A DNA stretch of 30,908 bases, taken from positions 1 through 30,908 of the IMG/VR virus record IMGVR_UViG_3300036801_000124, one strand, 5' to 3'. A program made the translations under genes and the position numbers. Positions 8,690 to 26,024 of this stretch are shown here, one piece after another (positions within the stretch are counted from its first letter, which is position 1; every line of letters begins with the position of its first letter). The DNA comes from a virus (taxonomy: Duplodnaviria; Caudoviricetes). Under the pieces are notes generated by a model. It saw only the letters and a program-made list of their open reading frames with translations, did not search any database and was not told the origin of the DNA.

Positions 8690-8964
8690 GACGGCACCTC
8701 CTCGCCGGTCGCCGTGTCGAAGACGGTGACCCAGCCGCCCGGCACGAACCCGTACCGGTTGGCGGCCGCCTCGGCAGTCCCAAGCGTGTCGCTGCGCTTG
8801 ATCGTCTCCGGCCCGAACGCGTAGTACGTCTGCGGGACGTAGCTGTTAGTCGCGCCGTCCCAGCGGCGTCCGTCGAAATCATCGGGGCGGCAGGCTACGG
8901 CGATGTAGCGGCACTGGCTCTGGTTGCGGAGCGTTAGGCCGCGAATGTTGAAGGTGCCCTTCAT
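8686..8964 (-). CDS. Hypothetical protein
   Basis: ATGA and GTGA coupling. Confidence 0.65.
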   Translation of the reverse strand: MKGTFNIRGLTLRNQSQCRYIAVACRPDDFDGRRWDGATNSYVPQTYYAFGPETIKRSDTLGTAEAAANRYGFVPGGWVTVFDTATGEEVPS

Positions 8965-9896
8965 GCCGCCACCGCCTCGGGGACTGCCAGCGCGGCGGCG
9001 TCCCCCGCCGCGCTGGTCTCTTCATCCTCGAACGTCGCGCCGACAACCAGGTCGGCCGCCTTCTGCGCCTGAGCGGCAGCCTGGACGACGAGCTTTTTGT
9101 CGTCCTTCAGCGCGCTCAGCCAGTTGGCGATGTACGAGGCCGAGTTCTCGTGCGTCTCGTCCTCGATCCCCGAGAGGCCGCAAAGCATCGCGGCCGTCAT
9201 CTCGGCGACGAGTTCTTCCTTCGCGTACGGCTCGATCGCGAACCCACCGGCGACGTACCGCTTCAGCCGCGACGGGTGCCCGGTCGAGTGAGCAAGCTCG
9301 TGGAACAGCGTCTTGTAGTAGAACGGCGCATTTTCGAACTGGCCCAGCAGCGGGATCCGGACGGAGTCGAGCGAGGGCGCGTAGTACGCCTGGTCGCCAC
9401 CGAACGAGTAGGCCGGGCCGCGACCGTCGAGGTAGTCCTCGACGAGGGCCTGCGCCTGCCCGATCCGCTCGTGCTCGGGAAGCTCAACAGTCGGCAGCGG
9501 CTCGATGCCGTCGGCCTGCTCGACGTTGAAGACGGTGTAGTCGCGGAGAAACATGACCTGCGGCACACGGCCGTTCTCGTCGGGCTCGGCGTCCCGCTTC
9601 GGGATCCGCTTCCAGAGGATGACGTGGGTGCCCTTCTCGCCCTTGCGGATCTGGCCACCCTTCTCCGTGATCGCCTTGTACGTGCCCCAGCGCGGGTCGC
9701 TGTAGCCGCCTTCGAGCGCGGCCAGGCCGAGCAGGAAGACATTGATTCCACGGTAGGGCTTGCCGCTCCGCACGTTGCGCGGACGGCTGTCGGCACCGAG
9801 GTTCTTCCACGGCTGGTGCCAGGGCACGGTGCCCTTCTCCAGCGACGCGATGATCCGGTCGGTGACCTCCTGGTAGATATCTCTCTTCTCTCTCAT
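8961..9896 (-). CDS. ardC: ArdC-like antirestriction protein (ssDNA-binding domain plus zincin-like metallopeptidase)
   Basis: DIYQEVTDRII..LE.G.VPW..PW, Y.GIN..LL, W.TYK...GGQIRKGEKG, YTVFNVEQ, AYY.P..D.V..P, HELAHSTGH..RL.R, YA.EELVAE, SASYI..WL..LK.D. Confidence 0.92.
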   Translation of the reverse strand: MREKRDIYQEVTDRIIASLEKGTVPWHQPWKNLGADSRPRNVRSGKPYRGINVFLLGLAALEGGYSDPRWGTYKAITEKGGQIRKGEKGTHVILWKRIPKRDAEPDENGRVPQVMFLRDYTVFNVEQADGIEPLPTVELPEHERIGQAQALVEDYLDGRGPAYSFGGDQAYYAPSLDSVRIPLLGQFENAPFYYKTLFHELAHSTGHPSRLKRYVAGGFAIEPYAKEELVAEMTAAMLCGLSGIEDETHENSASYIANWLSALKDDKKLVVQAAAQAQKAADLVVGATFEDEETSAAGDAAALAVPEAVAA

Positions 9897-13565: not shown

Positions 13566-13786
13566 CGCAGCGCGGAGACCTTCTCCTCGACCACGTCGAG
13601 GACGGCCCGCTCCGCCGTCGGCTCAACCCAGCCAGGGCTGAGCGCACGTAGAGAGCCTTCCAGGATCGGGTCGCTGTACGTGCCCATGAGCGCGTCGTAG
13701 ACGCGGACAAGCTGGAGGCCGTCGGCGTCCTTCCCGGCGTCGATCATGAACCGGTGGTCTCCCTGTTGAGCGACGATGGCAGCCAT
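13559..13786 (-). CDS. Small protein coupled to the MuF fusion (possible partner or immunity protein)
   Basis: TGATG overlap with the MuF stop codon. Confidence 0.6.
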   Translation of the reverse strand: MAAIVAQQGDHRFMIDAGKDADGLQLVRVYDALMGTYSDPILEGSLRALSPGWVEPTAERAVLDVVEEKVSALRY

Positions 13787-16700
13787 CAGATGCGGAGGTT
13801 CGCAACGTCGCTGAGGATCTTGAAGTCCTGGTAGTTGTCAACAACCTTGCCTGCGAGGCCGACGCGAGCGAGGAGATCGGCGAGTGCGCCTTGGCGGGCG
13901 TTCGCCGCCTTCCCGATGTCACGCAGCGACTTGTAGAAGTCGAAGGAGGTCGGTGGCTCGGTCGGGATGCCTGCCTGCTCGGTCTGCGGGCTGGCCTGCT
14001 GGGTGCCCTTGTTGTTCGCGTACAACTCGGTGACCGCCTCCACGGCCTCTCGCACGCGGCGTGCGTCTTCCCGTGACTGGATCAAGGCCATGTCGGGAGT
14101 GATGCCGCCGATCTCGGCGCTCGTGAGGCCGCCGTGGATCTCAACCTCGACGTATCGGCTGATGTCTTCGAGGTTGCCGGATTCGTATGCCTTGACGATG
14201 TCGAAGTCGCCCGTCCACGATCCGATCCCCGGGTCGGCGAGGAGCGACGGCGACAACTCCCCTCTGATCGCGGCGCGGTACGAGTCGCCGATGGTGAACG
14301 TGGCGCGGGCGTTCACGGACGGGTCGAGGTTGAGGATCAGGTCACCGTACTCCTGCACAATCCCGCCCTCGTCCGCCGTCCCGGAGAGGTAGCCGTAGAC
14401 GGGGCGCTCCACCGGGTCCGCGCCCGCCGGATACCCGAACATATTGCGCTCCGCCTCCGCGCGGCTGGCTGCCATCTCCGGCGTGACGCCGGGAAGCTCG
14501 TACTCCGTCTTGTAGCGGCCGTCCTTGACGATCTCTGCCAGCGTCTCGGGGGTGACACGAATCCGGATCTGTGGGTGCGCCCTGACGTAGCTTGAGATGA
14601 CCTCCTTCGCTGCCGCCTTGTATTCGCCGCTGGTCATGTGGTGGTCGGCGGCGTATTGCGCGATCTGCTTGTCGCGATGCTGGACGGCGGCTTCAGCGAT
14701 ATCGCGAGGCTGGCCGGGGAAGAAGTCGCCGCTGCCCACGGTCGGCGTCGGGTGTGTGATGCCGTCGGGGACGGGCTTCGCGACATCGGTGCAGGAGACG
14801 CCGTAACTGAACACCGCGACGAGCGAAGACTCCGCAGCCGTAGCGCACTTCGGGGCCTCCTCGATGGTGACCACGACGCGGTCGGCCCCAGTGTCGCCCG
14901 GCACCAGTGGATGATCTTCGGGGAAGACATCCTCCATGTGGTTGACCGTGACCGACTTGACCCGGTACATCGTCTCGGGCGGAGCCAGAACCTCGTGCTC
15001 GCCGATGTGGGAGGAGTACGGCCAGATCGGCGCGCCGGTGTGCGCCTTCTCGACACGGAAGATGAGGCCCGGCCTGTACGGGTTGGCGTAGCCAGACGCG
15101 AGCGCCGCATCGGTGGTCAGCGACTCGACCTCCCCCGGCTCGCCCATCTTGACGTAGCTGCCGACCCGATACTTCTTCTGCGCCCAGTTCGCGAGCGCGT
15201 CGGTCTGTTCCTTGAACGTCTCACGGAGGCGAGCCTGCGCCAGCGCCGCGTTACCGAGTCCCATCTTGCCGATGATGTCCTGCTCGATCTGGTTGTACGT
15301 CTCCGACAGGTTCGGGTCGATCCCGTTCGCCTTGACGGCCCGGTAGAGCGTCGTGTCGGGCGGCAGCGGCGGGGCCGATTCGACGACTCGTTTCAGGTTG
15401 TCGGCCGCCGTTTCGACTTCCTTCTTCGTGCGGTACCACTGCAACTTCTTCGGGTCGAGCTTCTTGCCCGCGAGGAAGTCGTTGATGTCGATGTAGCCGG
15501 TCTGCGTCCAGTCGTCGAGGATCTTCTTGTCGGCGGCCGAGAGGTTGTCGAGCCACGTCTTCTGCGGCGGGGCGTTGATGAGCTTGTCCATCTCCGGCCA
15601 CTCGGGCGCGATGATGGCCTCGCCCCGCGCCGTCTTCACCGTGGGCGTGTCGGCCGTCGGCACATCGGTCGCGGTCACGCCCTTCGGCCGCGAGAACTCG
15701 TCGAGGGCCTTCTGGTAGTCGCCCGTGTCGCGCTCGATCATCGAGAGCGTGCCGCGCTTCACGTCGTAGCCGCCGAGATCGTGGCCGAGCTTCGTGAGTT
15801 GCTTGACGAAGTCCGCGCCGGACCCGATCACCTGGAGGCGACCGTCGGAGGTGAACCGGCCGCCTGAAACTCCGGCGGACTTCATCGCTGCGAGGACCTT
15901 GTCCTGCGGCGTCGCCGTGCGGAACGTTGCCATCAGATCGTCGCCGGTGGGCTTGACGTTGATCGTGAGCGAGTCGATGAGCGGCTGGAGTTTCGGACGT
16001 GTCTCGCCGCCGACCTGGTCGAACGGGATCGCGTCGAACGCCTGAGCATCTGCGTCGATCTTGTCGCCGAGCTTCCAGAAGACGGGGTTGCCGCTCTTGT
16101 CGGTGCTGAGTTGGAGGAGATTCCAGTCGGGATTGCGGGCGGCCATGCCCATCCCGAACTGCACGCCGTCGAGAGTCGAGAAGTTGCCGTGGACGACTGA
16201 GCGCTTCAGGTCACGCGAGACACGGGCGAGCATGGCGCGGGCGTAGCCCTGTCCCTCGAACTTCTTGTCGAGCGCGAGCAGACCGATGTAGACGTGGTCC
16301 GGGTCTTCGGGCTTCGTGTAGAAGTCGAAGTGGCCGAGGGAGTTGCCCTCCTTGTCGGTGACCTTCATCAGTTTCCCGATCTTGCTCGGGTGCGGCCGTG
16401 GCGGGTACTCGTACGAGTAGTCCTCGTACTCGACCTTGAACCCATCGAGGGCCGCGTCAGCGCCTTCCGGCGCGTAGTCGAGCGCTGGCGTCCTCGCCCT
16501 GAAAAGGAGCACGCCGTCCTGGTTGTACGACTTGCCGAGGTTCGCCGAGAAGGCGTGCGCTCGGGCATCCAAGTTGAACCGCTCCAGGTTCGGTGGCGAC
16601 CAGCCCCACTCCAGCACGGAGTTCGCGTCGGTGAAGACCTGGCTGGCCGGAACCTGCATCGAGATGACGTGACTCTCTAGGTCCTGGCCGAGGTTGCCGT

Positions 16701-19700
16701 CCCCGTTCAACTCGGCGTACTTTTTCACCGGGCTGACCCAGTCTCCCGGGTTGATCTCGGTGACGTTCTCCGGGACGGCGCGGTAGATCGTGACCATCGC
16801 GCTCGGGTCGCCGTGGACCTTGTCGATGATGTCGAAGGCTTCTTGGTCCATGTCCGCCTGCCCGGTCCCGTAGATGCGAATGGCAGGCACGACCTTCGGC
16901 TGGTAGGCGACCTGGATGTTCTTCGAGTAGATGTCTCGCGGATACAGGTCGTGCTGGGTGAGGTCGTACATCGGCGCGTTGTAGCCGTCGTCGGTCGGGG
17001 CGCGATGCTGGATCTTGTAGGTGTCGTCTTCGGGCTTCGGCTCGGTCGGGCTGACGTGGATCGAAACTGACGGCTCGGTGTCGCCCTCCCAGATGCCGGT
17101 GACCTTGTCGATCCCGTCGATATGGACGCCGTACGCGTCCGCCGATTTCTTCGCGTCCTCAATGAACTGCTGGTACTTCGCCGAGTCGTAGAAGCCGACG
17201 GCGTTGTCGATGCCAGCCCGGAACGGCGTGATCCCGATGTCGATGGACTGATCCGGCATCTGCGCCATCACGGTCGGCGGCACCTCGGCCGGGACGGGCG
17301 GCTTCACAACCGTCTTCGTCGCGTCGAACGCCGACTGCGGCGGAATCCCCATTTTCTCGCTGAAGTCGCGCGCCTGCTGGAGCAGCGTCGAGATCGGCTC
17401 GTCGATCCGCTCGACCTTGATCGGGTGCGGCACGTCCGTGCCGGTTTGGTAGTCGCGGCCGAGGGACGCGGCCCAGCGGTGGTGGCCGTCGAGAATGTAG
17501 TTGTCGCTGGAGATCACGACCGGGTTGCTGGCGATAGGCGTCGCGCCCTCGGTCTCCATCTCGTCCATCGTCTTCGCGATCTTCGGGCCGTCCAACTCCG
17601 TCTGCGTGGCCCGCAGTGACTCCGGATTCACCATCTCCTCCTCGACCTTCACGCCCTGGTCGCGGAGCGACTGGAAGAATGGCTCCGAGATGTCACGCCA
17701 CGGCGACGGCTTCCCCTCGAAGATCGTGCCCGGCAGCTTCTCGGCCGGTGAGCCGGGGATCGGGAGGCCCGCCATCTGTGGCATGTCGATGCGCGGGATC
17801 CCGAGCGAGTCCTGCGTGAACAGGTTCGTCCCCGGCACCGACACCTTCCCGAGGTCGAGGCTGGGTGCCTCCTTGCCCGCCTTCTGCGCGTCGGCGGCCA
17901 TCTTGCCGAGGTCGTCGATGAACGTGTTGACCTCGCTGGTCTGCGCGAGCCGGACATTCTTTCCGGCGGCCAGTTCCCTCGCCGCCTCCTCCACGCTAGA
18001 GGTCGTGAGATCCGGCTCCGGCCACGGCACCCTGACCTGCCCGGCCTCGCTCGTGACGAGGTTCTTCAGGTCGTCGCCGATGGTCTGGATGAGTCCCGGC
18101 TCTTGCTCCGCCTCGCTCTGACCGGCAGCGACAGGTGCTTCCGTGTACGTGAGGGTGCAGCGACAGTTGATCGTCTCGCCCGGCTCACCGTTCGGGTCGC
18201 CCGGGAACTGAAGCTGGTCGCCGCCAACCTCGAACGTCGCGTCTTGCGGGACGGTCTGGCCGTCGAGCCCGGCGTAGTCCTCGTGGCGCGGGTAGCGCGC
18301 GCCGGGCGCGGTGTGCCAGACCTTGTTGTATTTCTGGCCGGTGACGGACGCGACGAGTTGGGTCGCGGCGAGCGAGCCGCCGTTCACGGCGCGGGCGAGT
18401 TCGGTGCGCGCGATCATCGTCGATCTGACCTTCGAGGCAGCCTTCATGCCGTCGCGGATCAGTCCGGCAGTCTGCGGCACCGTGAGCCCGTTCTGATAAG
18501 CCGAGCCAATGATCTTCATAAGGTTCGCGCGTGTTGTCATCGCGATGTTCGTCACCTGGCTCGCGCTGACGGCGAGCATCTGCGCGGTCAACGGATTCGA
18601 CACGTCCCACGAAAGCCCGGCCTGCTCCAGCGCCGGAGTCATCGTCTGCTCGATCATCGCCCTCCGGACAGGGTCGGTCTTGGCGAGGATCTGCTGGACG
18701 AGCGCGTTCACGTCGATCAGTTCGTCCGGGTAGGGCGGCGTCCACGACGCGGCGGCCGTGAGGGCGCGCACGCCGACGAGCGGCAGCGCAACCTCCTCGT
18801 CGTTGCCTCTGACGATGTGGAGCGAGTCGAAGTGGAGCGGGGCACCGGAGGCTGATTCGGGATAGCTACCTACCTCTTCTGCCGCTCCCGCCAACGCCGA
18901 GTCGCTTCGCGTCGGCAAGCGAGACAGATCCCCCAACCGCGACTGTCCCGCCGCTCGTAGCGCGTCCCGTGGATCGAACACACGGCTTGCCCCGGGTTGT
19001 GAATCTGACCGTGCTCCGAGTTCGTGACGGCCTGCATGTGTCGTGTATTCAGACACCGGCCCTTCCGGCAGCGATGATGCAGGTGAACCGCCGAGGGCAG
19101 GTAGCCCTTCTCCACCATCCAGACGATCCGATGGGCTTGAATCGGTCGCCCCGAAACCTTCACCTGCACGCTCGCTGCCGACGGGTTCCTCTCGCAGATC
19201 AGGCAGTCGCCGTCCGGTCTCGCCTCCGCGAGCAGTCGTCCCGCTTGCTCCTCCAACGTCAGCGCTCGCATTGGTTAGGCCCACATTACCGTCGTTCACC
19301 GTCAAGTGAGGCAGGAAGCCGTGGTCGCGGCTGAAGTTGATGCCCGCATCGAGGAGCGCTTCAGCGACGGCTGTACGCGTCTCTACGAGGCCGCGCACGT
19401 CCGGCAGAAGGATTCCCACCCCTGGCGGATCGAACGTCCCGTAGCCGCCGACAACGCCGGAGAGAGGCGCATACGAAGCCGCAACGGGCTTCAGGGCGTC
19501 GGCGATCTCCTGCAACGGCTGATCGGTCTCGCCGAGGTAGGCGAGGGTGACATGCAAAATCTCGGGCGGGTCGCCGTCAGGGTCAGCGAGAGCGGCGGCC
19601 TCGACCGGTCGCGGCTTCAACGCGATCATGGTCGAAGTCGAGGCCACATCCGCATTCGCCGCCGACGCGCCGAAGTGGCGGAGCGCCTTGTCCTGGAACC

Positions 19701-19857
19701 GCGCCGCCGCCTTCGTGCCAGCACGGGCGAGGATCGTCTCGATGATCGTGGCGAGCCGTGGCTCCAGATCATCGACGCGCTTCTGCGCCGCCTTCACGAC
19801 GGCGTTGTGCTCGCGCGCACTGACCTTCGGGCGTTGCCGACGTTCGACCGCCGCCAT
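13786..19857 (-). CDS. MuF-family minor head protein fused to multiple enzymatic domains
   Basis: Directly after the portal. 2H motifs HVT/HLT (~19550, ~19305); MuF IARTE...KVW...H...DGQ.V...F.VGG..L.FPGDP......INCRC (~18150-18750); ParB-like ILDGHHRW (~17480); GNAT FEGQGYA (~16250); VIP2/Alt-like ART LYR...SLTT...EHEVL (~14900-15550); DUF3626-like RPVYGYL...TFTIGDS...YVEVEIHGG (~14110-14570). Confidence 0.85.
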   Translation of the reverse strand: MAAVERRQRPKVSAREHNAVVKAAQKRVDDLEPRLATIIETILARAGTKAAARFQDKALRHFGASAANADVASTSTMIALKPRPVEAAALADPDGDPPEILHVTLAYLGETDQPLQEIADALKPVAASYAPLSGVVGGYGTFDPPGVGILLPDVRGLVETRTAVAEALLDAGINFSRDHGFLPHLTVNDGNVGLTNASADVGGASGTTARGGETGRRLPDLREEPVGSERAGEGFGATDSSPSDRLDGGEGLPALGGSPASSLPEGPVSEYTTHAGRHELGARSDSQPGASRVFDPRDALRAAGQSRLGDLSRLPTRSDSALAGAAEEVGSYPESASGAPLHFDSLHIVRGNDEEVALPLVGVRALTAAASWTPPYPDELIDVNALVQQILAKTDPVRRAMIEQTMTPALEQAGLSWDVSNPLTAQMLAVSASQVTNIAMTTRANLMKIIGSAYQNGLTVPQTAGLIRDGMKAASKVRSTMIARTELARAVNGGSLAATQLVASVTGQKYNKVWHTAPGARYPRHEDYAGLDGQTVPQDATFEVGGDQLQFPGDPNGEPGETINCRCTLTYTEAPVAAGQSEAEQEPGLIQTIGDDLKNLVTSEAGQVRVPWPEPDLTTSSVEEAARELAAGKNVRLAQTSEVNTFIDDLGKMAADAQKAGKEAPSLDLGKVSVPGTNLFTQDSLGIPRIDMPQMAGLPIPGSPAEKLPGTIFEGKPSPWRDISEPFFQSLRDQGVKVEEEMVNPESLRATQTELDGPKIAKTMDEMETEGATPIASNPVVISSDNYILDGHHRWAASLGRDYQTGTDVPHPIKVERIDEPISTLLQQARDFSEKMGIPPQSAFDATKTVVKPPVPAEVPPTVMAQMPDQSIDIGITPFRAGIDNAVGFYDSAKYQQFIEDAKKSADAYGVHIDGIDKVTGIWEGDTEPSVSIHVSPTEPKPEDDTYKIQHRAPTDDGYNAPMYDLTQHDLYPRDIYSKNIQVAYQPKVVPAIRIYGTGQADMDQEAFDIIDKVHGDPSAMVTIYRAVPENVTEINPGDWVSPVKKYAELNGDGNLGQDLESHVISMQVPASQVFTDANSVLEWGWSPPNLERFNLDARAHAFSANLGKSYNQDGVLLFRARTPALDYAPEGADAALDGFKVEYEDYSYEYPPRPHPSKIGKLMKVTDKEGNSLGHFDFYTKPEDPDHVYIGLLALDKKFEGQGYARAMLARVSRDLKRSVVHGNFSTLDGVQFGMGMAARNPDWNLLQLSTDKSGNPVFWKLGDKIDADAQAFDAIPFDQVGGETRPKLQPLIDSLTINVKPTGDDLMATFRTATPQDKVLAAMKSAGVSGGRFTSDGRLQVIGSGADFVKQLTKLGHDLGGYDVKRGTLSMIERDTGDYQKALDEFSRPKGVTATDVPTADTPTVKTARGEAIIAPEWPEMDKLINAPPQKTWLDNLSAADKKILDDWTQTGYIDINDFLAGKKLDPKKLQWYRTKKEVETAADNLKRVVESAPPLPPDTTLYRAVKANGIDPNLSETYNQIEQDIIGKMGLGNAALAQARLRETFKEQTDALANWAQKKYRVGSYVKMGEPGEVESLTTDAALASGYANPYRPGLIFRVEKAHTGAPIWPYSSHIGEHEVLAPPETMYRVKSVTVNHMEDVFPEDHPLVPGDTGADRVVVTIEEAPKCATAAESSLVAVFSYGVSCTDVAKPVPDGITHPTPTVGSGDFFPGQPRDIAEAAVQHRDKQIAQYAADHHMTSGEYKAAAKEVISSYVRAHPQIRIRVTPETLAEIVKDGRYKTEYELPGVTPEMAASRAEAERNMFGYPAGADPVERPVYGYLSGTADEGGIVQEYGDLILNLDPSVNARATFTIGDSYRAAIRGELSPSLLADPGIGSWTGDFDIVKAYESGNLEDISRYVEVEIHGGLTSAEIGGITPDMALIQSREDARRVREAVEAVTELYANNKGTQQASPQTEQAGIPTEPPTSFDFYKSLRDIGKAANARQGALADLLARVGLAGKVVDNYQDFKILSDVANLRI
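18870..19271 (-). CDS. HNH homing endonuclease nested in the +1 frame of the MuF gene
   Basis: DGDCLI, AHRIVW....G.LP....LHHRC....CLN..HM.AVT..EH (HNH_3-like) and C-terminal C.IHG...C.ACRR Zn motif. Confidence 0.85.
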   Translation of the reverse strand: MRALTLEEQAGRLLAEARPDGDCLICERNPSAASVQVKVSGRPIQAHRIVWMVEKGYLPSAVHLHHRCRKGRCLNTRHMQAVTNSEHGQIHNPGQAVCSIHGTRYERRDSRGWGICLACRREATRRWRERQKR

Positions 19858-19861
19858 CAGG

Positions 19862-21805
19862 TCAAGCCTTCGCGAGGACGCCAGTGATGTAGACGTGGAA
19901 CTGCGGCGGCAGCGGCGACGGCTTCATGTCGTACAGGGTGCGGAGCGCGTGACGTTCGATCTGGTCGAGCAGCAGCACCCGCGTCGCCTCCGGCAGATCC
20001 CACATCATGAACGTCTCCTCGACCACGGCGCGGGCGTTGCCGACGAGATCGGTCTCGTCGCCGACGAGCGCACGCACGCGGTCGCGCTTCAGGAACGCAG
20101 CGATGTCGCGAGCACGGATCTGGTTGCGCTCGATCTCCGCACGGATCTCGGGATCGCGGTTCGCGAACGACAAGATCCGGTTGCCCGCCTGCTCACGGAA
20201 GCGCATGACAGCGAGGTCGGCCGCACCAGCGATTCGGGCAGCCGCCCCAGCGGCTTCGAGGTTCCCGGCCTCAGCCTCGCCCGGCTGGCCTCCGTTCCCG
20301 TTCGGACCTCCGGCGGGCGGGCCAGTCTCGACCTCGGCCCCGGTCGTCGGCCCGGTCACCGGCGTCCCAGCGGTGCCCGCCGGTGACTCGACCACTCCAG
20401 CCTCCGGCTCGATGCCACCAGCCTTCACGGACGGGATGCCGTAGAGGGCAAGTGACCCGTCGCGGACGGCGACGCCGATCATCTCGTTCAACTCGTCCTG
20501 CGTCGGGGCGTCGGTCTCGTCGAACGCGGCCGCCTCGCGAAGCGCGGTCTTGCCGATGGCGCGCTTGTCGTAGAGATCCTTCGCGTCCTTCGTGCGGTCC
20601 GGATGGTTCACGACATCGGACGCGTCGTAGAGGATCGCGTACATCTCCCAGTCCGGCTTGTTGATCTCGCGCAGCGACGGGAGGAAGAACGAGGTCGTGA
20701 GGTCGCCGACAAGCTGGTTCGCGGCTGGCTGGCCGTGCGCCTTCCACGTCTGGTCGTCCACGATCCAGCCCGTCCAGTGGTTCGCGTCGGTCAGGCCGAG
20801 CAGGATCTCCGGCGGCATGTCGAGGCCGAGCGCGATCCGCTTGATGATCTCGTAGCGCAGCCCCGTCTCCGGGTAAAGCTGGGTCGGATCAACGATCTGG
20901 ATGTGGCGGAGGCCGTTCTGGATGGCGTCGGTTGGGCCTCTGACGACGATGGGGACGATCTGGGACGCCGCACCCTCGTTCATGATCGGCGCGAGCATCG
21001 CGTCACGGAGATCGCGCAGGAACGGGTCCATGTCCACGTCCTCGTCCGGTGTCGCCTCGACCGGCGCGTGGCTGAAGTCCTCCGAGATCGCGAGGATGCC
21101 CGTTCCGGCGAGGCGCGAGCGTGCGCGAGCGCGGACGGCGCGCGTCAGCAGCAGTAGCTCCTCGCAAAGATCGAGGACGCCCTTCATCGGCGCGTCGGCG
21201 AGCATCGAGTAGCGCGGATGGCGACGCCAGAGCCGGTAGACGACGGCCGTGTCCTCGTCGATGGGCTCGAAGTCGTCGTCGTCGATCTCGTGGAGCGTCT
21301 GCGCGTTCATCGTCGGCGCGCGGTACCGGACGTACGTGTTGCCCTGGACGCGAAGCTCGTCGGTGCTCAGCATCTCCCACTGCTCCAGCTTCGTCTTCTC
21401 GTTGATCGAGCAGAGCAGGTACGCCTCACCGGTGACGAACATCAGGCGGCCGTACGAGGAGAGCAGGCCCTCGCGGTCGCCATCGCCGCCACCCGGGTCG
21501 CGAATCCGGTCGAGGAGATCCTTCGCGTCGGGATCGTCGGTCTCTTCCCACTCGCCCTCGGCGTTCTTCTTCGCCGGGTAGAGCTTCAGCAACGACAGCA
21601 TCCGGGCGTAGAACTGGCTCGCGTACCAGATCTCGCCGAGCGCGTCGTAGTACGAGAACGAGCGTGCCTGCCACGGCTGGATGAGCCGCCGCATCTGGTC
21701 CGCGTCGGTCTTGCCGACACGGGAGCCAGCGGCGGTGAGCGCTTCGCGACCCGCGCCTACGTTCGGGTTGCCCGCTTTCGGGCGGCTCCGGCCCCAGAGG
21801 GCCAT
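19862..21805 (-). CDS. Phage portal protein
   Basis: PWQ..S..YYD.LGEI.YA, L.V.GEAYL, RLWR.HP.....AD.P, R.RL.G.GIL, A...VPIV, I.R.A.GLD.PPE.LLG..D.NHW..W, as in actinophage (mycobacteriophage cluster-B-like) portals. Confidence 0.88.
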   Translation of the reverse strand: MALWGRSRPKAGNPNVGAGREALTAAGSRVGKTDADQMRRLIQPWQARSFSYYDALGEIWYASQFYARMLSLLKLYPAKKNAEGEWEETDDPDAKDLLDRIRDPGGGDGDREGLLSSYGRLMFVTGEAYLLCSINEKTKLEQWEMLSTDELRVQGNTYVRYRAPTMNAQTLHEIDDDDFEPIDEDTAVVYRLWRRHPRYSMLADAPMKGVLDLCEELLLLTRAVRARARSRLAGTGILAISEDFSHAPVEATPDEDVDMDPFLRDLRDAMLAPIMNEGAASQIVPIVVRGPTDAIQNGLRHIQIVDPTQLYPETGLRYEIIKRIALGLDMPPEILLGLTDANHWTGWIVDDQTWKAHGQPAANQLVGDLTTSFFLPSLREINKPDWEMYAILYDASDVVNHPDRTKDAKDLYDKRAIGKTALREAAAFDETDAPTQDELNEMIGVAVRDGSLALYGIPSVKAGGIEPEAGVVESPAGTAGTPVTGPTTGAEVETGPPAGGPNGNGGQPGEAEAGNLEAAGAAARIAGAADLAVMRFREQAGNRILSFANRDPEIRAEIERNQIRARDIAAFLKRDRVRALVGDETDLVGNARAVVEETFMMWDLPEATRVLLLDQIERHALRTLYDMKPSPLPPQFHVYITGVLAKA

Positions 21806-24112: not shown

Positions 24113-24340
24113 TTAGGAGTCGGCGTCGGACGTGTAGCCACCCTCATCCGGGTGGACATGGCGAGCCTCATCCGTCGCAGACTCCGGCTGCTCCGGCTCG
24201 CCGTAGCCCGGTGCTTCCTCGTCCGGGGTCGGCTGTCCGGCGGACTCGACCGCCGCCTCCGTGCGCGCGGCGACCTCCTCGTCGCTCGGTGCCTCCGGAG
24301 TTGCCTCAACCTCGGCCTGCTCTGCCGGTGTCTCACTCAC
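24113..24340 (-). CDS. Small highly acidic low-complexity protein
   Basis: E/P/A-rich; GGGAGG SD. Confidence 0.6.
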   Translation of the reverse strand: MSETPAEQAEVEATPEAPSDEEVAARTEAAVESAGQPTPDEEAPGYGEPEQPESATDEARHVHPDEGGYTSDADS

Positions 24341-24524
24341 TGGTGCCTCCCTTCTCGATTGCGCGCTTCGACCAGAGGAACGCTTCCTCCAGCTTCGTCG
24401 CGATGATGGCCTTCTCCCGGCCCACCGGGTCTTCCGGGTTGCCGGTCAGGTCTTGAACGGCGAACAGGGCCGCCTCGATGTCGTCTCTGACCTCGCGGAG
24501 CACCTGGAGCGCGCCCTCGTCCAT
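24333..24524 (-). CDS. Acb2/Tad1-like helical hairpin protein (candidate nucleotide-signal sponge)
   Basis: GREKAIIATKLEEAFLWSKRAI matches the RE.A...TKLEEA..W signature; TGATG coupling. Confidence 0.6.
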   Translation of the reverse strand: MDEGALQVLREVRDDIEAALFAVQDLTGNPEDPVGREKAIIATKLEEAFLWSKRAIEKGGTSE

Positions 24525-25321
24525 CACTCGCCTCCTCGTAGAGGTGCCGGATCTTCTATCAGTGTGGTGTCGTCGTGGGGCTGGTGGATCTCGAACGCAT
24601 TGTGGAACGACGCCACGATCTGCTCGTCCGAGTCGCCGTCGTAACAACGCCAGCCAACACCATAGGTTGCGGGCAGGCTCGTGACGGCGTAGGCGAGGCG
24701 GCCGTTCTTGATCTTGCGGAGGAACTGCTGCTCGCTGCGCCAGGAGAAGTGGCGGACGTTGAATGGGCCATCGACGGTGAGCGTCTTGCCGTTGGTCTGC
24801 GCGCCGTGGTTGCCCATCTCGATGTAGAGGTCCGGCCGCAACCGGCAGATCACCTTGAACATGCCGAATGTGCGCTGACGCCACCGGATCCGCTTGACCG
24901 GGTTCTCCTGGTACGTGTCGTCGCTCGTGGTGCAGAGGTGGTTGAAGACGGGGACGCGGAAGATGCCGACATCGGGGCCGCAGCCGCCTAGATGGTCCTT
25001 GATCCGGACACGCGGGTCGTTGTGCTGCCAGATCTCGTCGGCGTCCACTGGCACGACCCAGCGGTGTCCACGCGCGAGCGCTTCCATCGCGAGCCCGGTC
25101 GTCTTGCGATCCTGGTAGTAGCCAACCTCCAGGTCGCCGTGAACCTGAAGTCGTTCGCCGAACTCCTCGATGAGAGCCATAAGGATGTCGGGCGTAGCGT
25201 CGGCGCTCATGTTGTCGGCAACGATCACCTCGTCCACGTGCCAGAGCAGGTGCCGGATCGTGGTCTCGATGATGTCGGACTCGTCTTTACACAACATCAC
25301 GGCGCACACACCGCCGCTCAC
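24524..25321 (-). CDS. Glycosyltransferase family 2-like
   Basis: CAVML.KDE.DII...I.H, VIVADN.S.D.T..IL, WVVPVDADEIW, VRHFSWRS..QF..K. Confidence 0.85.
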   Translation of the reverse strand: MSGGVCAVMLCKDESDIIETTIRHLLWHVDEVIVADNMSADATPDILMALIEEFGERLQVHGDLEVGYYQDRKTTGLAMEALARGHRWVVPVDADEIWQHNDPRVRIKDHLGGCGPDVGIFRVPVFNHLCTTSDDTYQENPVKRIRWRQRTFGMFKVICRLRPDLYIEMGNHGAQTNGKTLTVDGPFNVRHFSWRSEQQFLRKIKNGRLAYAVTSLPATYGVGWRCYDGDSDEQIVASFHNAFEIHQPHDDTTLIEDPAPLRGGE

Positions 25322-25815
25322 TTCGCCCTCCGCTTCCGCATGTAATCGCGGATGTAGTCGCGGCGGCAGATCCGGCAGCCGCGCCGACCGTCCGGATAGC
25401 TGTAGACGTTGTCGTCCGTGAGGTCGTGGCCCTTGTCGCAGATCGTCTTGCGCGAGTTACGGGCTGGTGCTCCTTCGCCTCGCAGAATGTTTTCGCGATT
25501 CGTGACGGCTTCGAGGTGCGCCGGGTTGACGCAGTTCCGCACACGGCAGAGGTGGTCAATCGTTGCGCCTTCGGGGATCGGCCCGTAGGCCAGTTCGTAT
25601 GCCTGCCGGTGGGCACCGATGGACTGGTACGAACGTGGTGTGAAGCGCCCGTACCCATCCGCGCCAGTCGCGCCCGTCCAGAGCCAGCACCGACCGAGCG
25701 TTGGATACTCGGGGCCGTGGCGGTCGATCTTCGCCTCGAAGCGTTCGGTAAGGGACACGCCGACATCATATTCCTCGTCCTTGACGAGCATGACCGCGCA
25801 GACGCCGCCGCTCAC
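25280..25815 (-). repeat. Duplicated 14-codon gene start (25774-25815 and 25280-25321) bracketing the HNH gene
   Basis: MSGGVCAVMLVKDE versus MSGGVCAVMLCKDE; 32/42 nt identical. Confidence 0.85.
25318..25815 (-). CDS. HNH homing endonuclease fused to the captured glycosyltransferase N-terminus
   Basis: ERFEAKI...CWLWTGA...GYG.F...AHR.AYEL..GPIPEG..IDHLCR.R.CVNP.HLEAVT..EN..RG...KT.C..GH...R.C..C. Confidence 0.92.
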   Translation of the reverse strand: MSGGVCAVMLVKDEEYDVGVSLTERFEAKIDRHGPEYPTLGRCWLWTGATGADGYGRFTPRSYQSIGAHRQAYELAYGPIPEGATIDHLCRVRNCVNPAHLEAVTNRENILRGEGAPARNSRKTICDKGHDLTDDNVYSYPDGRRGCRICRRDYIRDYMRKRRAK

Positions 25816-26024
25816 TCCGCTCCTCGGATCTCGCCGTGGGTGATCTCGCGCCACGGCGACGGCTTCGGGGTGATCTTGCGCCGCAGCTTGCGGATTAGCC
25901 GGTCGCGCGTCCACGCCCGGTAGTACGTCGAGCAGTCGAACTCAGCGAGCGTTTCGTCTGGATTGACTGCGACCCACCAGAGACCCGTCCAGCTTCGCCG
26001 AATCCAGAAGCGCTTCTCGGTCAT
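25812..26024 (-). CDS. Hypothetical Trp/Arg-rich protein
   Basis: ATGA and GTGA coupling. Confidence 0.55.
   Translation of the reverse strand: MTEKRFWIRRSWTGLWWVAVNPDETLAEFDCSTYYRAWTRDRLIRKLRRKITPKPSPWREITHGEIRGAE

Follow-up and report, generated by a model that had tools for sequence, protein, structure and literature searches.

An intact HNH endonuclease gene lies in frame +1 over the loop that follows the second catalytic HxT motif of a phage 2H phosphoesterase domain, which forms part of a large MuF head protein. We consider it likely that this is a non-splicing homing gene overprinted on the post-HxT loop, with a host that is translated through it, and that it spreads by cutting insert-free 2H genes. 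By this mechanism the host protein would be made in one pass straight through the insert, without splicing, so that stops in the host frame would be selected against, while the nuclease would nick insert-free 2H genes at or beside the HxT codons and be copied into them by gene conversion.

The window (the whole 30,908-nt stretch of phage DNA analysed here) contains a head module in which a portal gene (19862–21805) is followed by the ORF of a 2023-aa MuF polyvalent head protein (13786–19857, minus strand), whose 2023 codons encode 2H phosphoesterase, MuF, ParB-like, ADP-ribosyltransferase-like and DUF3626 domains. The N-terminal part of the 2H domain (approximately aa 75–186, 19300–19635, minus strand) is recognized by Pfam (PF13563, E 1.8e-10) and modelled at a pLDDT of 81–98 per block. 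It includes the first catalytic motif, H102-V-T (19546–19554, minus strand), and ends with the second, L-P-H184-L-T (19300–19314, minus strand), the inferred homing target; the His and Thr of the first motif are invariant across 71 aligned sequences. PHLTV begins at aa 183 (nt 19311), and PLHFDSL, which opens the last two strands of the 2H domain (PLHFDSLHIVRG..., 18772–18840, minus strand, placed by the alignment of relatives and by the model), begins at aa 340 (nt 18840). The MuF domain follows at aa 452–569 (18151–18504, minus strand; PF04233, E 4.2e-7). Further downstream, the ADP-ribosyltransferase-like match (aa 1433–1527) is missing from the closest relative (P0013) and DUF3626 is common to both, suggesting that the C-terminal cassette of the window protein (13786–16000, minus strand) may have been swapped relative to P0013. 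Elsewhere in the window are a second, free-standing HNH gene (phrog_826, 25318–25914, minus strand) among glycosyl- and methyltransferase genes, a polyvalent anti-restriction protein with ArdC-N and MPTase domains (8961–9896, minus strand), and a gene (24333–24884, minus strand) with an Acb2/Tad1 hairpin-like match (E 1.2e-5, slightly below the Pfam cut-off), which makes it a possible anti-defence gene of the nucleotide-sponge type.

As the sequence-only reading had it, the HNH gene is nested in the 2H domain right after the second HxT. Its 133-aa ORF (18870–19271, minus strand) is offset by one base from the host codons, begins nine codons past H184-L-T186, and matches Pfam HNH_3 (PF13392) with an E value of 1.4e-8 and 34.7 bits against a cut-off of 24.8. 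Residues H65-H66, N75, H87 and H91, which we take to be those of the His-Me catalytic motif, are all intact together with the Cys pairs, and the host MuF frame contains no stop across the gene. Read in the host frame, the same DNA (18871–19299, minus strand) specifies a loop rich in Gly, Ser, Ala, Arg, Glu and Pro, devoid of Trp and Cys, and predicted to be disordered (pLDDT 40–57). Host sequence restarts at the HNH stop with GSYPESASGA (18841–18870, minus strand), since the insert-free relatives L040, L042 and L043 read DGYPESAVGN or DDYPSSACGK at this position and thereby identify it as host sequence. At the junctions no direct repeat or target duplication flanks the insert. Within the gene, a 22-nt inverted repeat (86% complementary, arms 71 nt apart, 19066–19180, minus strand) has one arm that spans a stretch where the window HNH deviates from its family consensus. 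The closest HNH relative (P0006, also 133 aa, 55–57% identical) lies on a 973-nt contig.

A comparison with related proteins establishes how much has been inserted. Between T186 and P340 the window protein has 153 residues. Among its best 150 relatives, of which 109 had a measurable loop from the second HxT to the PLHF strand (four were unresolved and 37 lacked a clear 2H domain), this loop is at most 30 aa long in 102, contains a 45-aa Cys-rich insert in three, and exceeds 100 aa in four, the window protein included. The net insert therefore amounts to approximately 133–138 codons, and to judge from these alignments it is essentially the HNH gene alone. The approximately 45-aa Cys-rich module (CxxC...C...C) that occupies the same post-HxT loop in P0017, P0021 and P0077 resembles, by eye, an N-terminal module of P0015 and P0016; as inserts of differing kinds are found in the one loop, it evidently tolerates them. 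The closest protein, P0013 (74% identical), is insert-free, as is a 372-nt contig from a soil run (X1, possibly the sample from which the window came). This contig is approximately 84% identical to the window and brings 19315 and 18840 together, leaving space for 60 nt between the two, its short side being only 30 nt. Its next 30 nt encode T-A-H-I-T-I-S-G-D-G, with 15 of the 30 positions differing from those of the window, so that an upstream identity of approximately 84% drops to 15 of 30 nt from the second HxT (19300–19314) onward.

The nested layout recurs beyond this phage, and the host frame is open in all three nested loci for which DNA is available (the window, L005 and L028) and in three further proteins. 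The latter (P0015, P0016 and P0029, known from protein sequence only, with hosts 53–59% identical to each other) carry long inserts homologous to the window insert in the host frame (Smith–Waterman scores 129–198, against shuffle maxima of at most 90), and their +1 frames are compatible with 19–20 of 20 conserved HNH residues (scores 212–254), as compared with 3–12 of 20 (scores 34–64) for four control stretches put through the same test. On a tree of 40 host proteins the four insert-bearing MuF hosts require four changes, and a single clade is rejected (p-AU 0.001). The HNH family itself is represented by six distinct loci with DNA, all six inside or just after a 2H gene. In L005/L006 a Myrna-type 2H gene contains the HNH gene, which follows PHITVAY. 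In L028 the host is a MuF-protease ORF with an open frame of 1361 codons, and the HNH gene is nested directly behind its 2H domain; TurkishDelight is an empty relative. In the remaining three, namely Myrna gp95, L004 (with L007–L010) and the cluster C1 phages, the HNH gene lies downstream of the 2H stop. The three nested HNH genes do not form one clade (p-AU 0.013, on a tree with one long outgroup branch).

A single-sequence search with the window HNH gave no matches and a profile search gave 11; a metagenome scan found three loci, all of the L004 type; a scan of viral contigs with the 2H N-terminus, a search of a genome collection for the HNH and for the MuF host protein, and a comparison of the HNH sequence profile with solved structures returned none. 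A profile of the host-frame shadow, weak as a census, picked out two proteins from 8000 scored candidates, namely P0029 and that of L005.

Insertion beside active-site codons had been regarded as typical of homing targets, and cluster C1 mycobacteriophages lend substance to this idea, since among these relatives the HxT codons are recoded with HNH presence. The HNH gene is found in 66 of 202 C1 records, a set of related phages with duplicates included, and all 66 carriers match Ghost at 99% or better from the HxT motif to the HNH start. With a 50-nt motif query, 68 records match at 99% or better, 39 at 95–99%, 89 at 90–95% and six lower; read by identity band, approximately 41 of the 136 HNH-less records would have the recoded motif and approximately 95 would be without it. 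In 11 aligned records, CCT-CAT-TGC appears in all three HNH carriers and in three of eight non-carriers, the other five of which have CCG-CAC, so that the catalytic motif is polymorphic in cultured C1 phages (IPHCT versus IPHIT). The differences between the alleles cluster on the catalytic codons, where 4 of 7 nt are changed in DNA that is otherwise nearly identical. We infer that such recoding is the pattern expected of a carrier allele immune to its own nuclease, the target being drawn mainly from these free-standing C1 family members. Across the family, the His codon of the HxT motif is CAT in five of six HNH-linked loci, and in HNH-free motifs it is CAC in 51 of 65 and CAT in 14. The window, unlike the other five HNH-linked loci, keeps CAC, although its motif does use CCT and TTG (in the rest of the gene CCT makes up 7 of 135 Pro codons and TTG 11 of 135 Leu codons), and its own target-site allele difference is suggestive only.

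The same C1 data bear upon a different reading, in which the HNH gene is linked to 2H genes as a mobile passenger but has its cleavage site elsewhere, or benefits the phage, for instance in packaging, and the recoded HxT is merely part of a linked haplotype. Several further differences at 3' positions of the 2H gene do distinguish the C1 HNH haplotype, and the window element sits in a head-packaging module beside the portal gene. Against this, the C1 differences gather on the catalytic codons, as described above, and the recoded patch (CCT-CAT-TGC) also occurs in Megamind, ET08 and Alice (L033, L120 and L121), which have no HNH gene and otherwise carry the downstream markers of HNH-less phages. 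Moreover, the HNH is dispensable, because it is absent from 136 of the 202 C1 records and no family member was found within 1.5 kb of any of 80 further related 2H loci. A passenger of this kind is in our estimate rather improbable, and homing into the HxT codons remains the preferred explanation.

If the host is indeed translated through the insert, its 2H domain must close around a long additional loop. An AlphaFold2 model of aa 73–376 assigns a pLDDT of 81–98 per block before the insert, 40–57 within it, where there is almost no secondary structure, and 88–97 to the two strands that follow, although the underlying alignment of 71 mostly insert-free sequences favours a closed fold. Both HxT motifs and the complete 2H fold are present in the model, and in a Foldseek search 2H enzymes rank first. 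Its VIA alignment to drCPDase (Z 16.4, rmsd 3.0, model range 1–297) covers 157 of 182 residues, more than the approximately 120 that the pre-insert part can supply, and an alignment to Acb1 (7t26) is weaker (Z 9.3, rmsd 3.5, 127 residues aligned). In the model the post-insert strands thus complete the 2H fold, as had been supposed from their resemblance to other phage 2H domains, and the domain is predicted to close around a disordered loop of approximately 140 residues.

The absence of host-frame stops requires a more cautious treatment. Under three null models the probability of finding none across the window HNH gene is 0.019–0.025, so that at this locus alone the open frame is weak evidence (p approximately 0.02). 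The corresponding values are 0.0002–0.0016 for L005 and 0.001–0.058 for L028, and the shifted frame contains 0, 0 and 0 stops in the nested loci (window, L005 and L028) versus 2, 5 and 2 in the downstream loci. Control HNH genes, however, also fall below expectation (2 observed vs 2.9, 5 vs 7.1, 2 vs 4.1 and 4 vs 5.2, the four stops being those of the free-standing gene at 25318–25914), and the nulls therefore overstate significance; among 17 distant HNH loci, two likewise lack stops in the shifted frame along the matched part. Part of the earlier argument had been that the 17 T-ending HNH codons yield 11 Ser and no stop in the host frame. This count is exact (the others giving three Leu, two Phe and one Tyr), but it has no force as a sign of selection, since Ser is as frequent in non-nested HNH genes (11 of 18 T-ending codons in Myrna, 14 of 28 in Ghost and 15 of 40 in L004); the Ser bias is a codon-context effect.

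This weak statistic leaves some room for the view that the insert leaves the 2H domain inactive or in two parts, with the open frame a matter of chance or a residue of the past and MuF expressed from an internal start downstream. Such starts do exist, in-frame GTG or ATG codons being found at aa 363, 383, 401 and 406 of the MuF ORF, one of them with GGAGG 3 nt upstream. Similarly, the L028 insert is followed by an SD-like AAGGAAGG and an ATG, and read-through may therefore be dispensable there. Accordingly, the sequence-only claim that MuF and the residues beyond it depend on read-through is not airtight, and survives in part: the last 2H strands strictly need it, and for the downstream MuF portion dependence is likely only. 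Nonetheless, the frame is open in every nested case, in hosts as far apart as those of the three protein-only inserts, and each of the four MuF proteins with the insert keeps its two HxT motifs and the later strands intact. We regard an inactivated or split 2H domain as highly improbable, and translation through the insert as the better account.

The nuclease itself would be translated separately, either from an internal transcript with a short leader or by re-initiation after a mini-ORF. Both of the sequences earlier put forward as possible drivers are present: TAATGT, a putative -10-like hexamer (19283–19288, minus strand), lies 11 nt before the HNH ATG, and a mini-ORF in the HNH frame, M-W-A-stop (19275–19286, minus strand), a putative re-initiation route, ends 3 nt before the ATG and is preceded at 9 nt by an SD-like GGTGA (19296–19300). 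Hexamers of the form TAnnnT occur at 0.97 per kb on the minus strand of the window; L005 has TACTGT 7 nt before its HNH ATG, and L028 has no such hexamer. Neither a sigma-70 promoter nor a terminator was called.

Splicing is unlikely. The insert has at most approximately 27 nt before the HNH ATG and the host restarts at the HNH stop, so that, being essentially the HNH ORF, it has no room for a ribozyme. It has no Rfam match at E values up to 1, and a group I or II intron was rejected on these same grounds. As a whole it folds no better than shuffled sequences (z -1.27), and no RNA structure joins its ends. Nor is there an intein Hint family among the Pfam matches listed for P0015, P0016 and P0029, or among five of the six Pfam families matched by the window protein. 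Removal of the insert after transcription or translation, whether by an unrecognized intron, ribosomal bypass or intein-like splicing, deserves hardly any credence, since the one feature in its favour, a strong hairpin at the inverted repeat inside the HNH gene (z -6.0, in a window chosen after the fact), has no counterpart at this position in relatives, no stop follows a take-off site, the host-frame insert has no predicted fold, and splicing would need no open frame.

A broader proposal, to which we would give about an even chance, is that a single HNH family has specialized on the HxT codons of 2H genes and has repeatedly moved from an adjacent to a nested position, where it would continue to home although wholly overprinted, leaving a virion MuF protein with a shadow peptide of approximately 140 residues and a C1 motif recoded from IPHIT to IPHCT even where no HNH is present. 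Its loci show a route from adjacent through nested to overprinted HNH. Hidden non-splicing HNH inserts have so far been computational findings, with neither cut site nor homing test in the available text of the report describing them (PMC11855218). The family described here offers a predicted target, the second HxT, and cultured M. smegmatis phages that carry three natural alleles, namely HNH with the recoded motif, the recoded motif only, and the unrecoded motif. Through this family a layout described in dispensable methylases is also found in a polyprotein of head morphogenesis, the 2H domain of which has been proposed to counter host nucleotide signalling, and the family implies that some ‘low-complexity linkers’ of phage proteins may be shadows of unannotated nuclease genes.

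Among known systems the nearest is the ShiLan domain (Arsenault, Gosselin, Gogarten 2025), a computational description of stop-free, out-of-frame HNH inserts in actinophage methylases (PMC11855218). The same report includes the hidden HNH of Pacc40 gp60 and a nested-versus-adjacent pair (Pacc40 and Sashimi/Tiff81). Judging by its available text, these cases share with the window a same-strand HNH ORF in another frame, a stop-free host frame, the lack of an intron or intein signature, a looped insert of low confidence and a patchy distribution, and as in the window family the HNH related to that of Pacc40 also lies beside the gene in other phages. Membership in the ShiLan family proper was nevertheless rejected. 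The two HNH sequences align over the core only (21.9 bits, 22 of 72 residues identical), indicating a different family, the frame is +1 in the window versus +2 in ShiLan, and in place of a methylase the window element occupies a 2H phosphoesterase within a MuF head protein. Furthermore, the window family differs from ShiLan, as far as the accessible part of that paper goes, in that a candidate target is identified for which recoded alleles exist, and in that the HNH gene occurs in three layouts and was nested independently several times.

Other parallels are more partial, and are drawn here from the portions of the cited sources at hand. The free-standing HNH enzymes of T4-like phages, mobA and mobE, undergo ‘intronless homing’, with a target in the adjacent gene and co-conversion (PMC2988022). 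Like them, the window family has a nuclease with a C-terminal domain and patchy inheritance, and in its adjacent members the start codon overlaps the stop of the gene before it (TAATG in Myrna, GTGA in Ghost); the recoded C1 alleles match the co-conversion of the free-standing T4 enzymes (PMC2988022). Unlike them, the window copy is contained in the gene that it would target, at a distance of nine codons from the inferred site, and its whole length overlaps the coding frame. In Aeh1, nrdA is split by mobE and function is restored without RNA or protein splicing by two polypeptides joined through their tails (PMC3045599); here too an HNH gene lies inside the coding region of an enzyme, but the window keeps one continuous frame. 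Non-canonical actinophage inteins, whose hosts include minor capsid proteins, carry an out-of-frame endonuclease and thus likewise have an endonuclease gene overprinted on a host-frame insert (bioRxiv 10.1101/2025.01.02.630785), whereas the window insert lacks a splicing domain and is only of HNH length. As to the host, 2H domains of MuF and portal polyvalent proteins have been proposed to act on RNA ends or on host signalling nucleotides, and Acb1 and the MuF 2H proteins have in common with the window the HxT/HxT tetrad and a 2H fold fused to MuF (PMC5512222, PMC9117128); the window model is closer to CPDase/LigT (Z 14–16) than to Acb1 (Z 9.3). No earlier report of an HNH family linked to 2H phosphoesterases was found in a literature search that was thin on subscription journals. 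The layout is already published (ShiLan, 2025), and the novelty lies in the family of the nuclease, in its candidate target in 2H genes, in the repeated nesting, and in the cultured phages in which these can be tested.
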